Source of the DNA: Escherichia coli
GTDB lineage: Bacteria; Pseudomonadota; Gammaproteobacteria; Enterobacterales; Enterobacteriaceae
Reading direction: 5' to 3' (one strand)
Length of the DNA stretch: 64,000 bases
Assembly: GCF_016026235.1 (NCBI RefSeq)
Contig: NZ_CP065613.1
Shown: positions 54,706 to 59,211 of the stretch, in pieces
Position numbering within the stretch: position 1 is the stretch's first letter
Layout: each line of letters starts with the position of its first letter
Notes under the pieces: model-generated
Database searches by the model: none
What the model saw: only the letters and a program-made list of their open reading frames with translations
What the model was told of the DNA's origin: nothing
Position numbers and translations under genes: made by a program

Positions 54706-55956
54706 ATGGAAAGTAAAGTAGTTGTTCCGGCACAAGGCAAGAAGATCACCCTGCAAAACGGCAAACTCAACGTTCCTGAAAATCCGATTATCCCTTACAT
54801 TGAAGGTGATGGAATCGGTGTAGATGTAACCCCAGCCATGCTGAAAGTGGTCGATGCTGCAGTCGAGAAAGCCTATAAAGGTGAGCGTAAAATCTCCTGG
54901 ATGGAAATTTACACCGGTGAAAAATCCACACAGGTTTATGGTCAGGACGTCTGGTTGCCTGCTGAAACTCTTGATCTGATTCGTGAATATCGCGTTGCTA
55001 TTAAAGGCCCGCTGACCACTCCGGTTGGTGGCGGTATTCGTTCTCTCAACGTTGCCCTGCGCCAGGAACTGGATCTCTACATCTGCCTGCGTCCGGTACG
55101 TTACTATCAGGGCACCCCAAGCCCGGTTAAACACCCTGAACTGACCGATATGGTTATCTTCCGTGAAAACTCGGAAGACATTTATGCAGGTATCGAATGG
55201 AAAGCTGACTCTGCCGACGCTGAGAAAGTGATTAAATTCCTGCGTGAAGAGATGGGCGTGAAGAAAATTCGCTTCCCGGAACATTGTGGTATCGGTATTA
55301 AGCCGTGTTCAGAAGAAGGCACTAAACGTCTGGTTCGTGCAGCGATCGAATACGCAATTGCTAACGATCGTGACTCTGTGACTCTGGTACACAAAGGCAA
55401 TATCATGAAGTTCACCGAAGGCGCGTTTAAAGACTGGGGCTACCAGCTTGCGCGTGAAGAGTTTGGCGGTGAACCGATCGACGGTGGCCCGTGGCTGAAA
55501 GTCAAAAACCCGAACACCGGCAAAGAGATCGTCATTAAAGACGTGATCGCTGATGCGTTCCTGCAACAGATCCTGCTGCGTCCGGCTGAATATGATGTTA
55601 TCGCCTGTATGAACCTGAACGGTGACTACATTTCTGACGCCCTGGCAGCGCAGGTTGGCGGTATCGGTATCGCCCCTGGCGCAAACATCGGTGACGAATG
55701 CGCCCTGTTTGAAGCTACCCACGGTACTGCGCCGAAATATGCCGGTCAGGACAAAGTTAACCCAGGTTCTATTATTCTCTCTGCTGAGATGATGTTACGC
55801 CACATGGGTTGGACCGAAGCCGCAGACCTGATTGTTAAAGGTATGGAAGGCGCAATCAATGCGAAGACCGTAACCTATGACTTCGAACGTCTGATGGAAG
55901 GCGCTAAACTGCTGAAATGTTCAGAGTTTGGTGATGCGATCATCAAAAATATGTAA
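54706..55956 (+). CDS. icd: Isocitrate dehydrogenase (NADP)
   Basis: 416-aa [43 protein letters not shown]; full length and uninterrupted. Confidence 0.97.
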
Positions 55957-55978
55957 ACACTACATGTGTTAAATATTT

Positions 55979-56010
55979 AAACGGGCGTATAACACGCCCG
56001 TTGTTTTATT
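55979..56010 (+). terminator. Intrinsic terminator after icd
   Basis: Stem aaacgggcg/cgcccgtt with loop tataaca, followed by gttttattt. Confidence 0.7.
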
Positions 56011-56309
56011 TATGTGGATATTATTAATAGCATATCGAGCATATTTATATAAAACCCATTACTTGAGCCCATATGGGCATATTTTTATAATACAACTCTT
56101 ATGCAAACATTTATTTGTTATTTCGCTTTCTCCTGGAGGACACTCTTGACTGCTTTTGAGTAAACTCCATAAATTCTTGTTGAATGGTGCAATGTTATAA
56201 ATAGTTATAGGATATTCTTTATCCTTAAGGATAATACCAGGCTTAACCAGTGTAGGTAATGCTGCCAACTTACTGATTTAGTGTATGATGGTGATTTTAA
56301 GGTGCTTGC

Positions 56310-56585
56310 GTGGCTTCCATTTCCATCAGATGTCCTTCCTGCTCCGCTACTGAAGGCGTGGTGCGTAACGGCAAAAGCACTGCCGGACATCAGCGCTATC
56401 TCTGCTCTCATTGCCGTAAAACATGGCAACTACAGTTCACTTACACCGCCTCTCAGCCCGGTACGCACCAGAAAATCATTGATATGGCCATGAATGGCGT
56501 CGGATGTCGCGCCAGTGCACGCATTATGGGCGTTGGCCTCAACACGGTTTTACGTCACTTAAAAAACTCAGGCCGCAGTCGGTAA
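56310..56585 (+). CDS. insA: IS1 InsA (transposition inhibitor / N-terminal part of the transposase)
   Basis: 91-aa [43 protein letters not shown]... with a zinc-finger Cys cluster; the A6C slippery site TTAAAAAAC lies at 56559-56567. Confidence 0.93.
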
Positions 56586-57007
56586 CCTCGCGCATACAAC
56601 CGGGCAGTGATGTGATTGTCTGCGCTGAAATGGACGAACAGTGGGGCTACGTCGGTGCTAAATCACGTCAGCGCTGGCTGTTTTACGCGTATGACAGGAT
56701 ACGGAGGACGGTTGTGGCGCACGTCTTCGGTGAACGCACTCTGGCCACACTGGAGCGTCTTCTGAGCCTGCTGTCGGCCTTTGAGGTCGTGGTATGGATG
56801 ACGGATGGCTGGCCGCTGTATGAATCACGCCTGAAGGGAAAGCTGCACGTTATCAGCAAGCGTTACACTCAGCGCATTGAGCGACATAATCTGAATCTGA
56901 GACAACATCTGGCAAGGCTGGGACGGAAGTCACTGTCGTTCTCAAAATCGGTGGAGCTGCATGACAAGGTCATCGGGCATTATCTGAACATAAAACACTA
57001 TCAGTAA
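56504..57007 (+). CDS. insB: IS1 InsB reading frame, expressed as the InsAB' transposase by -1 frameshifting
   Basis: 167-aa -1-frame ORF overlapping the insA 3' end and containing the DDE-like catalytic region. Confidence 0.9.
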
Positions 57008-57854
57008 GTTGGAGTCATTACCACCAGTGTAAATATACTTCCAGGAGGAAGAAATATAGTAGATTGATACCAGATAATCATTTTCATATCACCCCATATG
57101 GCTGAAAAAGATATGCCGCATGTAGGTTGAATTACCGTGTCAATTACTACCCACTTCATTTGTTATGTCTTATCCCACGGTATTTAATATAGTTCATTTG
57201 GATGTTCATTTCTTTATTTTGCATATGAGTATATTACCCCTTCAAAAAATAAATTAATTAAAACGATTGCTTATATAAAACAAAATTTAAAGCAAGGAAT
57301 CTCAATGGATGTTAAACAAAATGAGATTTAGTGAAAACAATAAATTATTCACTTCGTTTTAGATTTGTTTAGCTATAATGTTATACATTCAAATGACTGA
57401 CCATCCTGTAATTAAAACATAGCCTTTATGCTACTTTGTGCCAATTTGCTAAACATTATGGTTGCCTTTTTATATAACGATAATAATGAATATAAGCATG
57501 ACATGAGAATAAGGTTTCAATTTTTGAGTTATATAGGAAAGGTTTAACCTGTTCCTGGCTAAAATACATATAACTGGATGATGACTAAACCAAAACACAT
57601 GTGCGTTAAGTATTGAAACGGGCGTATGGCACGCCCGTTGTTTTTATAAATATATTAAACGTTATGAAATAACGTATAGAAAGTCAAGTGATCACATTTC
57701 AAATATCAATTTGATAGTATTGGCCTGGTGATTATTTATGGGTAGCAATAAAAGGACAGTATTTATCATCCATAGGGATAGTCTCTGTACTTTTATTCCC
57801 ATTATGCTAATGCCTTACTGAATTATGAAGCATTTCTTAAGCATCCAACTTTAG

Positions 57855-58259
57855 CTAGATTAATGGTTTATTATTTTCTACATCTTCAATATATAAAAGC
57901 GTATTATCAATGGCGTAGTAACTGCGTTTGTTATGATTAACATCAGTAACCCAACGGAAAACGCCCGCGTCTGCCAGTGTTGAACAGTATTCCCGAAATG
58001 TAGATTTTCCGCAAATATGAAGCAATGCGGCCTCTTTTATTTTAGCAGGGTTCTTGGTCGTACTAACTTTTAACAGGTTCCTGGTTCCTCTTAATAACAA
58101 AACCGTGTCATCGTGAGTAATAATTCTGATGTTATCCGTAGCCAGATAATAAATGTAATGTGCAATACGGTGATGTTTTAATTCTGAATAAAACCAGGAG
58201 AAGTTTTGCTCTTTTCTCACTTGCTCAAACATCTTTTGAAAAACAACGACCTGATCCAT
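57855..58259 (-). CDS. ycgX: DUF1398-family protein YcgX
   Basis: 134-aa ORF MDQVVVFQKMFEQVRKEQNFSWFYSELKHH flanked by AT-rich DNA, upstream of bluR; identity from recalled gene order. Confidence 0.7.
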   Translation of the reverse strand: MDQVVVFQKMFEQVRKEQNFSWFYSELKHHRIAHYIYYLATDNIRIITHDDTVLLLRGTRNLLKVSTTKNPAKIKEAALLHICGKSTFREYCSTLADAGVFRWVTDVNHNKRSYYAIDNTLLYIEDVENNKPLI

Positions 58260-58479
58260 CAGGATAATAACCTCTTGTTAGTTGTGAGACTGCGTAGTGT
58301 GCACGATCGGTTTTACCACTTCAATCTGGTCTGTTCTTTGGCTGTGATATGTACAGAGTGTGATAGAGGGATTACCTGAATTCTCCCGGTGAGCATTTTG
58401 CAACGGACCAGCTCCGGTACAAATGCTGTTGTGGGTTCAGATTATAACATTCTGTCTAAGGGGCAGGATAAAGGTGAAA

Positions 58480-59211
58480 TTAGGGGGCATGAAAGATGAC
58501 TTTATAACCTTGCTCACCCCAGTGTTGTAAAAGTTCATTTTGCCTTCTCGTTGGTGCCATGCCTGTCCAGACAATCAATGTTTGCGTCGGGAACAGTTCT
58601 GGGCGCGGTGATTCAATGGGATCAGCAAGAACAGAAATGTGCCATCCTGACAATGATAAACGCCATGCTTCCAGCCACAATCGTGCTCTCTCTTCAACAT
58701 TCCATGCCATCAGAATGGCTTCTTTACCGGGCTTACGGCGCATTTCGAAAAGCGAGGCTGCTGCGTATTCAATTAGTGCGCCGTCAAACATACTGCTCAT
58801 AATGCGGGAGGTGTTGTGATCAAGCACGAGACGCTGGCGAACAGGAAGGTAAACATGATTAATCAATTGATCTACTGGGTACTCTCGACCCAGTGAAATA
58901 ATTCTCGCGCGTAGTTTGGCAGGATTAGCCATACGAAGAATTGACATCATCTCTTCTTGCAGGCGGCTCCAGTCATCTTCCGTATCCTGGCTGGTGGTTT
59001 CCAGTAATGCTTTAACTTTGCCTACAGGGACGCCATTACTTATCCAACGCTTGATCTCTTCGATGCGTTGTATGTCTTCTTCATCAAAGAGTCGGTGTCC
59101 GCCTTCACTGCGCTGTGGTTTTAACAAACCGTAGCGGCGTTGCCAGGCCCGGAGAGTGACAGGATTAATCCCGCAACGTTCAGCAACATCACCAATGCTG
59201 TAATAAGCCAC
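58480..59211 (-). CDS. bluR: MerR-family transcriptional repressor BluR (YcgE)
   Basis: 243-aa ORF with an N-terminal MerR HTH ([32 protein letters not shown]). Confidence 0.88.

Follow-up and report, generated by a model that had tools for sequence, protein, structure and literature searches.

Gene organisation of the icd-ycgX interval

The window, a stretch of 64,000 nucleotides of Escherichia coli DNA (contig NZ_CP065613.1), carries the isocitrate dehydrogenase gene icd on the plus strand (54706-55956), an open reading frame of 416 amino acids with its stop codon at 55954-55956 that is also annotated in the matching E. coli records. According to the gene order and annotation, taken over from K-12 and from E. 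coli records that match the window, icd is followed by its terminator (here termed T1), the minus-strand genes iraM and ymgK, a second terminator-like hairpin (T2), the minus-strand genes ymgL and ycgX, and finally bluR. The GC content is approximately 50% in icd, drops to 28-35% directly behind T1 and remains low up to and including ycgX.

IraM, a regulator of RpoS stability, is an anti-adaptor of RssB. In the window genome its gene (56059-57159, minus strand; PF11183, PmrD-like) is a pseudogene disrupted by a 768-bp IS1 copy (56255-57022, plus strand) with insA/insB-type open reading frames. The insertion is bordered by a 9-bp target duplication, ACCAGTGTA, at 56246-56254 and 57023-57031, the corresponding uninterrupted sequence in K-12 being cttaaccggtgtaaatatact, and the two coding halves of iraM (56059-56254 and 57032-57159) sum to 324 nt, the length of the intact K-12 gene. 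A search of complete E. coli genomes with the segment 55500-58300, which spans IS1, returned no single contiguous match; the best full-length matches were 96.9% identical and consisted of three pieces, with IS1 matched elsewhere. The window may accordingly belong to a lineage rich in IS1, such as Shigella.

The remaining genes of the interval are small. A ymgB/ariR-like gene is represented by a stump of about eight codons (MQNKEMNI; 57200-57224, minus strand), which was recognised by alignment with a fuller E. coli locus (L036). The gene ymgK (57412-57456, minus strand) encodes 14 amino acids, is annotated in K-12 and is conserved in sequence in the window; its product has been detected by epitope tagging (PMC6001520). 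The position of ymgL (57692-57802, minus strand, 36 amino acids) was transferred by alignment from the K-12 annotation (PMC6001520), and ycgX (57855-58259, minus strand; DUF1398) was assigned from its open reading frame, annotation and family membership. The plus strand contains an open reading frame of 29 codons (57459-57548; MVAFLYNDNNEYKHDMRIRFQFLSYIGKV), whose first codon is located 3 nt past the start codon of ymgK and whose end is separated from T2 by 68 nt. K-12 has this frame as well, and no sign of its expression was found.

An earlier examination of the window from its letters alone, referred to below as the sequence-only reading, had located T2 in a gap between two minus-strand genes, where it ends no annotated plus-strand gene. 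Both statements hold: the nearest genes are ymgK and ymgL, followed by iraM and ycgX, and no annotated plus-strand gene was found upstream of T2. On the minus strand the stop codon of ymgL is located 52 nt from the T2 hairpin. T1, for its part, is positioned 3' of the convergent gene iraM.

T2 is a second copy of the icd terminator module

T1, the native icd terminator module (55955-56007, plus strand), is composed of a 27-nt flank, a hairpin (55980-56002) and a T-run (56003-56007), and its sequence at 55980-56007 reads AACGGGCGT-ATAAC-ACGCCCGTT followed by GTTTT. T2 (57593-57644, plus strand) is organised in the same way, with a flank at 57593-57616, a hairpin at 57617-57639 and a T-run at 57640-57645, and reads AACGGGCGT-ATGGC-ACGCCCGTT followed by GTTTTT at 57617-57645. 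The sequence-only reading had noticed the two near-identical hairpins, and both were found in place: local alignment and BLAST within the window gave one significant block between T1 and T2 that covers 53 columns with an identity of 84.9% (E = 3e-9). The repeated unit therefore amounts to approximately 52 bp extending from the icd stop codon to the T-run and comprises the 27-nt flank, a 9-bp stem, a 5-nt loop and the T-run itself. In agreement with the earlier statement that the similarity reaches into the 5' flank, the unpaired 27 nt 5' of the stem were also significantly similar in an anchored alignment (p < 0.002), at a divergence of about 20%. The distance of 1.6 kb originally given for the two copies is correct for the window. 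However, it includes the 768-bp IS1, and the native spacing between T1 and T2 is only about 0.86 kb.

Outside the module the similarity ends. Neither 40-400 nt upstream, where the end of the icd coding sequence was compared with the region preceding T2, nor 40-150 nt downstream was the similarity any better than between shuffled sequences. Local and right-anchored alignments of three T2 haplotypes against five icd 3' ends, evaluated with shuffles, revealed no remnant of the icd coding sequence beside T2.

The possibility that T2 belongs to a decayed icdC-like pseudogene was ruled out on the basis of the missing icd coding similarity upstream of it.

GC-rich hairpins are common, and T2 might have been a chance resemblance or one member of a dispersed hairpin family of the REP/BIME kind, with which it shares the character of a GC-rich extragenic palindrome occurring in more than one copy. 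The sequence-only reading had itself named a generic hairpin spread over the genome as the finding that would speak against a specific relationship. Nothing of this kind was observed. The degenerate hairpin pattern AAACGGGCGTNNNNCACGCCCGTT has two sites in the 64 kb, T1 and T2, compared with no match in 100 shuffles, and a search of the 64-kb window detected no third, older copy of the module further downstream. Across 5,383 E. coli genomes the module occupies a median of two places per genome, and all copies inspected were located either at the icd locus or inside an element integrated at icd. REP/BIME sequences are defined by many copies at unrelated loci; T1 and T2, in contrast, are only two chromosomal copies at one locus, apart from those borne by elements, and their similarity includes the unpaired flank. 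Taking together the shuffles, the count per genome and the similarity of the flanks, T2 is a true paralogue of T1, and its interpretation as a generic hairpin can practically be discarded. A search of 55500-58500 against Rfam 15 yielded two sub-threshold matches (E = 0.25-0.37), neither of them at T2.

A separate observation concerns strain 144 (L023, NZ_CP023364.1; 3560-4190 and 5138-5768), in which IS200C is inserted directly after the T-run of both T1 and T2. The junctions are identical (GTTGTTTTT|gtgcacag), which indicates that IS200C treats the two modules as equivalent targets. The T1 loop of this strain reads GTTAT, the flipped form of ATAAC, on an unchanged stem.

Filled and empty sites among E. 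coli genomes

T1 and T2 form direct repeats around an AT-rich islet that contains iraM, the ymgB-like stump and ymgK and measures approximately 0.86 kb without IS1. A filled T2 junction was detected in 3,690 of 5,426 complete E. coli genomes, and the filled-site region is 94-99% identical among strains. In a further 1,037 of these genomes (about 19%) an empty-type junction was found, where the icd 3' end is joined to ymgL-ycgX by one terminator. Most of the remaining genomes appear to have lost the region beside an icd prophage, as judged from two genomes inspected.

The empty site is exemplified by strain GN05476 (L006), in which icd, one terminator, a ymgL-like gene and ycgX follow each other without iraM or ymgK. 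The single terminator of this strain combines a left flank and a loop of the T1 type with a right flank of the T2 type (GTTTTTATAAATATG...). The same empty site is found in strain MS1737 (L007), where it is preceded by an icdC fragment that stems from an island at icd. The empty-site strains sampled, among them the type strain ATCC 11775, ATCC 25922 and ST131, look like members of phylogroup B2. Direct repeats surrounding foreign DNA at one site, together with a single-copy empty site in other strains, are the arrangement expected of an att scar. With other small islets bounded by direct repeats the locus shares imperfect repeats of about 50 bp, a cargo of low GC content and a precise empty site with a single repeat in about 19% of the genomes. 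It differs from them in that the repeat is a terminator instead of a tRNA 3' end and in that no mobility genes are left. The islet between the two icd terminator copies offers a concrete origin for the varying presence of iraM among strains: about one fifth of the sequenced E. coli strains lack the gene and have an exact empty site instead.

Some E. coli strains (L036, L037 and L039) possess a fuller islet with an intact gene of the ymgB/ariR family (84 amino acids; 6921-7175 in L036) between iraM and ymgK. This gene is a paralogue of the nearby chromosomal genes ycgZ-ymgA-ariR, and no phage match was obtained for it. Compared with L036, both the window and K-12 lack approximately 430 bp. This deletion joined the region upstream of the ymgB-like gene to iraM, and what is usually regarded as the promoter region of iraM may thus have belonged to the lost gene at first.

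The empty site could represent either the ancestral state or the product of a deletion between T1 and T2. In a tree of the ymgL-ycgX flank the empty-site alleles fall among the filled ones, albeit only when the tree is rooted at its midpoint. A scan of genome contigs for outgroups with the pattern AACGGNCGTNNNNNACGNCCGTTGTTTT gave matches in E. albertii, where icd is followed by the remnant of a prophage, and in three Citrobacter, besides four unrelated chance matches; as the scan missed E. coli despite exact matches in K-12 and ATCC 11775, the absence of other Escherichia from its results is no evidence. Most of the diverged homologues of YcgX and IraM are prophage accessory genes or are located at other loci.

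A divergent but syntenic haplotype was identified in L046 (GCA_009898965.1, VTMG01000019.1; 8782-16562), in which T2 and ymgL are absent. Its gene order is icd, an e14-like junction, a gene for a protein of 455 amino acids (no Pfam match), a TrkH-family gene, iraM, the ymgB-like gene and ycgX. At the nucleotide level iraM is 80% and ycgX 88% identical, and iraM has a different terminator there, GCCCCTCTACGAAGGGGC. The flanks with bluR and core genes are 96-98% identical to those of other E. coli. Measured in its core flanks, L046 has diverged from the window only to about the same extent as the empty-site strain L006, and it therefore does not provide a clean outgroup.

Folding, constraint and transcription at T1 and T2

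The RNAs of T1 and T2 are predicted to form the same 9-bp stem with a 5-nt loop, with free energies of about -17 kcal/mol for the whole segments and -15.3 kcal/mol for the stem alone, and both were called as terminator-like sites of the plus strand. With six G-C pairs in its 9-bp stem and the plus-strand tail GTTTTT, T2 of the window has the stem and the U-tract of an intrinsic terminator. On the minus strand its tail, TTTCAATA, has four T in eight positions and fails the terminator scan. In most other strains T2 contains an internal mismatch, which lowers its stability to about -8 to -10 kcal/mol, so that the stem no longer cleanly qualifies.

In about 45 instances of T1, from E. coli, E. albertii and Citrobacter, the stem-loop does not vary and its pairing is perfect, and in the e14-type copies the stem has changed on both strands in a compensated manner that keeps the pairing perfect. 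Among the loci read, T2 occurs in six haplotypes, four of which have uncompensated stem mismatches and one a broken T-run. The intact form is found in the window and in strain 144 (stem about -15 kcal/mol). The mismatched forms are the L001 type with a G>A change in the 3' arm (-9.5 kcal/mol), the K-12 type with an A.G mismatch (-9.8 kcal/mol), the L040 type with an A.C mismatch (-7.7 kcal/mol) and the L036 type with an A.C mismatch at another stem position (-8.7 kcal/mol); the T-run is broken in L043. None of the six haplotypes shows a compensatory change in the stem. Counting exact 66-mers in the set of complete genomes assigned 312 records to the intact window type, 1,519 to the L001 type and 1,311 to the K-12 type, and from the latter two counts it follows that the hairpin is weakened in at least about three quarters of the T2-bearing genomes. 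The best reading of this pattern is that T1 is under strong constraint and that T2 is largely vestigial and decaying in most E. coli. The locus thereby offers a natural pairing of a constrained terminator with an unconstrained copy of it.

The second origin considered by the sequence-only reading, namely that T2 terminates an unannotated plus-strand transcript, found no backing. Such a transcript could be a small RNA or the mRNA of a small open reading frame such as the one at 57459-57548, whose end 68 nt upstream of T2 would suit this role, and T2 of the window does resemble a canonical intrinsic terminator with its GC-rich 9-bp stem and T5 run. However, no promoter-like site of the plus strand was detected in a scan of the segment between IS1 and T2 (57023-57617), no Rfam family matched, and the stem has been degraded by uncompensated changes in most lineages. 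The conservation of the 29-codon frame is uninformative because the whole region is 94-99% identical among strains. In the curated Term-seq data of K-12 (PMC7815308, supplementary file 1) the 3' end of the icd transcript maps to 1196422/3 on the plus strand, on the e14-borne homologue of the terminator, and under the three growth conditions of that study no 3' end was recorded at T2 (1212450-1212499) on either strand, including the plus-strand positions 1212490-1212499 at which the postulated transcript would end. The T2 copy of K-12 (1212465-1212494) is a mismatched allele flanked by poorly expressed genes, and the negative Term-seq result consequently says little on the intact allele. For T2 we thus found neither a transcription unit running into it nor, in the 3'-end data, which cover K-12, a mapped end, and a role in ending a plus-strand transcript seems very unlikely.

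A working T2 could also act in both directions. As a selected terminator or insulator it would end ycgX-ymgL transcription on the minus strand, thereby shielding the PhoP-regulated genes ymgK-iraM, in the way that T1 ends iraM, and stop antisense transcription on the plus strand. This function would be compatible with an origin by duplication and would depart from the explanation preferred below only with regard to the current role of T2. T1 and the single copy of the empty site are situated, like known bidirectional terminators of convergent genes, between icd and a minus-strand gene, which in the case of the empty site is ymgL-ycgX, and a minus-strand gene ends about 50 nt from the same hairpin in both copies, iraM at T1 and ymgL at T2. 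The minus-strand RNA of T2 forms a stable fold (-15.3 kcal/mol, z = -3.6) with a 3' tail, UUUCAAUACUU, that is very similar to the T1 tail in K-12, and the intact allele persists in the 312 records mentioned above. In contrast to the known bidirectional terminators, T2 has no plus-strand gene feeding into it, its minus-strand U-tract is poor and, like that of T1, fails simple terminator criteria, and its stem is decaying: at least 2,830 of about 3,690 T2-bearing genomes have an uncompensated mismatch that costs about 5-7 kcal/mol. Furthermore, no 3' end of the minus strand is recorded around 1212455-1212465 in K-12 Term-seq; a Rho-dependent termination region listed in that study (PMC7815308) is located inside ycgX instead. 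Taking furthermore into account that the divergent haplotype L046 lacks T2, we regard a selected bidirectional function as rather unlikely, though less so than a dedicated plus-strand transcript. In the lineage of the window, where its hairpin is intact, T2 is predicted to terminate plus-strand transcription efficiently and could halt stray transcripts of that strand; it could also be a weak stop for minus-strand read-through from ycgX-ymgL into ymgK-iraM. Overall, T2 preserves a terminator beside ymgL-ycgX that is no longer under strong selection and would have at most residual activity.

Relationship to phages and other elements integrating at icd

Phage 21, e14 and related elements integrate at the 3' end of icd, the known crossover of phage 21 and e14 being located about 165 bp inside the gene. 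A total of 28 records of lambdoid phages, among them phage 21, ev017, 4A7 and Lambda_2E9, were found to carry the last 150-220 bp of icd together with the terminator. In 23 of the 28 phage alignments listed the match stops at query position 230, which corresponds to window position 56009 and is at most 3 nt from the right edge of the T1/T2 repeat. The module is hence carried by phages that use the icd site, as would be expected of an att scar. However, the known crossover core is not part of the repeat, given the lack of icd coding similarity upstream of T2.

In several prophages (L004, L005 and L030) int and xis come immediately after the terminator. In K-12 the e14-borne terminator follows icd, and the native T1 is found after icdC, about 15 kb away and just before iraM, with T2 beyond it. 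The T2 flank is of the native or phage-21 type and not of the e14 type. No phage-borne module of the T2 type was detected, all 24 of 24 matches on viral contigs being host flanks of prophage predictions at icd. A comparison of 57023-57700, from the 5' half of iraM to T2, with phages produced matches inside the iraM coding sequence only, and no integrase or phage structural gene was identified within the islet, so that membership in the iraM family is its sole link to phages.

Homologues of the IraM family (55-73% amino acid identity) occurred in these searches only in lambdoid prophages, as accessory genes (morons). In Stx2 and other lambdoid prophages they are located between Q/stx2AB and nanS-p/holin and oriented opposite to late transcription. 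If such a prophage were integrated at icd with int beside icd, this orientation would be that of the chromosomal iraM relative to icd. In E. albertii prophages, accessory genes homologous to ycgX (DUF1398) are situated between Rz and Nu1. The loci concerned, for the IraM and YcgX families together, are L016 (5001-5324), L017-L022 and L027-L029.

The arrangement of T1 and T2 resembles the duplication that e14 and phage 21 produce as icdC and attL/attR in involving the same site, the same module and a right homology boundary within 3 nt; e14 and phage 21, too, supply a new terminator beside icd and displace the old one distally. The differences concern the extent of the duplication, which spans about 165-220 bp of icd in e14 and phage 21, whereas T2 covers about 50 bp after the stop codon without any icd coding fragment, as well as the islet, which has neither an integrase nor a prophage body, and the T2 flank, which is not of the e14 type.

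Origin of T2 and of the iraM islet

In our view T2 is a paralogous, largely vestigial copy of the icd terminator module that bounds the iraM islet distally and was left behind as a scar, either att-like or from a duplication; we assign to this explanation a probability of roughly 0.65. According to the sequence-only reading, T2 might be what remains of an old duplication of the 3' end of icd, a hot spot of lambdoid integration. The paralogy, the direct repeat, the empty site and the right edge shared with the attP/attB homology of phage-21-type elements are in favour of this proposal; it has to be narrowed, however, as the duplicated part is only the module of about 50 bp following the stop codon, with no icd coding sequence by T2.

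Each element integrating at icd brings its own icd 3' end and terminator and pushes the older copy distally, as can be seen directly in K-12. We infer that an earlier element, or a fragment with the lambdoid-type accessory gene iraM, was captured at icd, which left T1 as the functioning terminator of icd and T2 as a copy that had been displaced or duplicated, and that the captured element then decayed to the present islet. In addition, the T1/T2 repeats are a substrate for recombination that would delete the islet and leave the empty site with a single terminator seen in about one fifth of the genomes. Because the crossover of phage 21 and e14 is inside icd and yet no icd remnant is found by T2, a crossover of this type would additionally require a later deletion ending a few bases from the old stop codon, or else homology limited to the terminator. 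A possible reason for the missing icdC might be that islets with the longer icdC homology are unstable and that only versions without icdC persist.

The alternative of a purely local duplication by slippage, unequal exchange or gene conversion would do without a mobile element and would have iraM and its neighbours already residing in the chromosome. It would account for the islet having no integrase or att core, for the ymgB-like gene being a paralogue of the neighbouring ycgZ-ymgA-ariR without a phage match, and for the linkage of iraM, the ymgB-like gene and ycgX being kept in the very divergent haplotype L046. On the other hand, tandem copying should include adjoining sequence, and the similarity is confined to the 52 bp; the homology between phages and host ends at the right edge of the repeat, and apart from this locus the iraM family was encountered only in lambdoid prophages. 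The divergence of about 20% between the flanks fits an imported copy as well as an old one. A local duplication is therefore improbable in our view.

An extension of the preferred explanation, that of an att-like scar, which we put forward only tentatively and hold to be possible rather than probable, would treat the whole icd-ycgX interval as a layered record of integration and decay at one att site, each cycle leaving a terminator module and an accessory gene. Read outward from icd, the layers in K-12 would be the e14 terminator with e14, icdC with T1 and iraM, and T2 with ymgL-ycgX. IraM and possibly YcgX would then have been domesticated from accessory genes of the lambdoid late region, and the short, diverged modules T1 and T2 would have survived since the islet, once the longer icdC homology had gone, was stable against deletion.

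We found no description of the T1/T2 repeat in the literature on iraM and phylogroups or on icd, phage 21 and e14. T2 belongs to a known kind of scar, of which this example has apparently not been described before, and it represents neither a new mechanism nor a new class of element. Its assignment accounts for an odd orphan terminator within a thoroughly studied region of the E. coli chromosome.

Two minor observations relate to the elements at this site. The chromosomal order of iraM followed by ycgX, both on the minus strand, is the order that these genes have in a lambdoid prophage inserted at icd. The e14-like elements at icd in E. coli (L031, L033-L035 and L038) and Citrobacter (L009 and L010), which have the same hairpin in both genera, contain a varied cargo between terminator and integrase that includes AAA_15/AAA_21 ATPases, DUF4435, a methyltransferase and a protein of 1,040 amino acids, and this position looks like a hot spot for defence genes.
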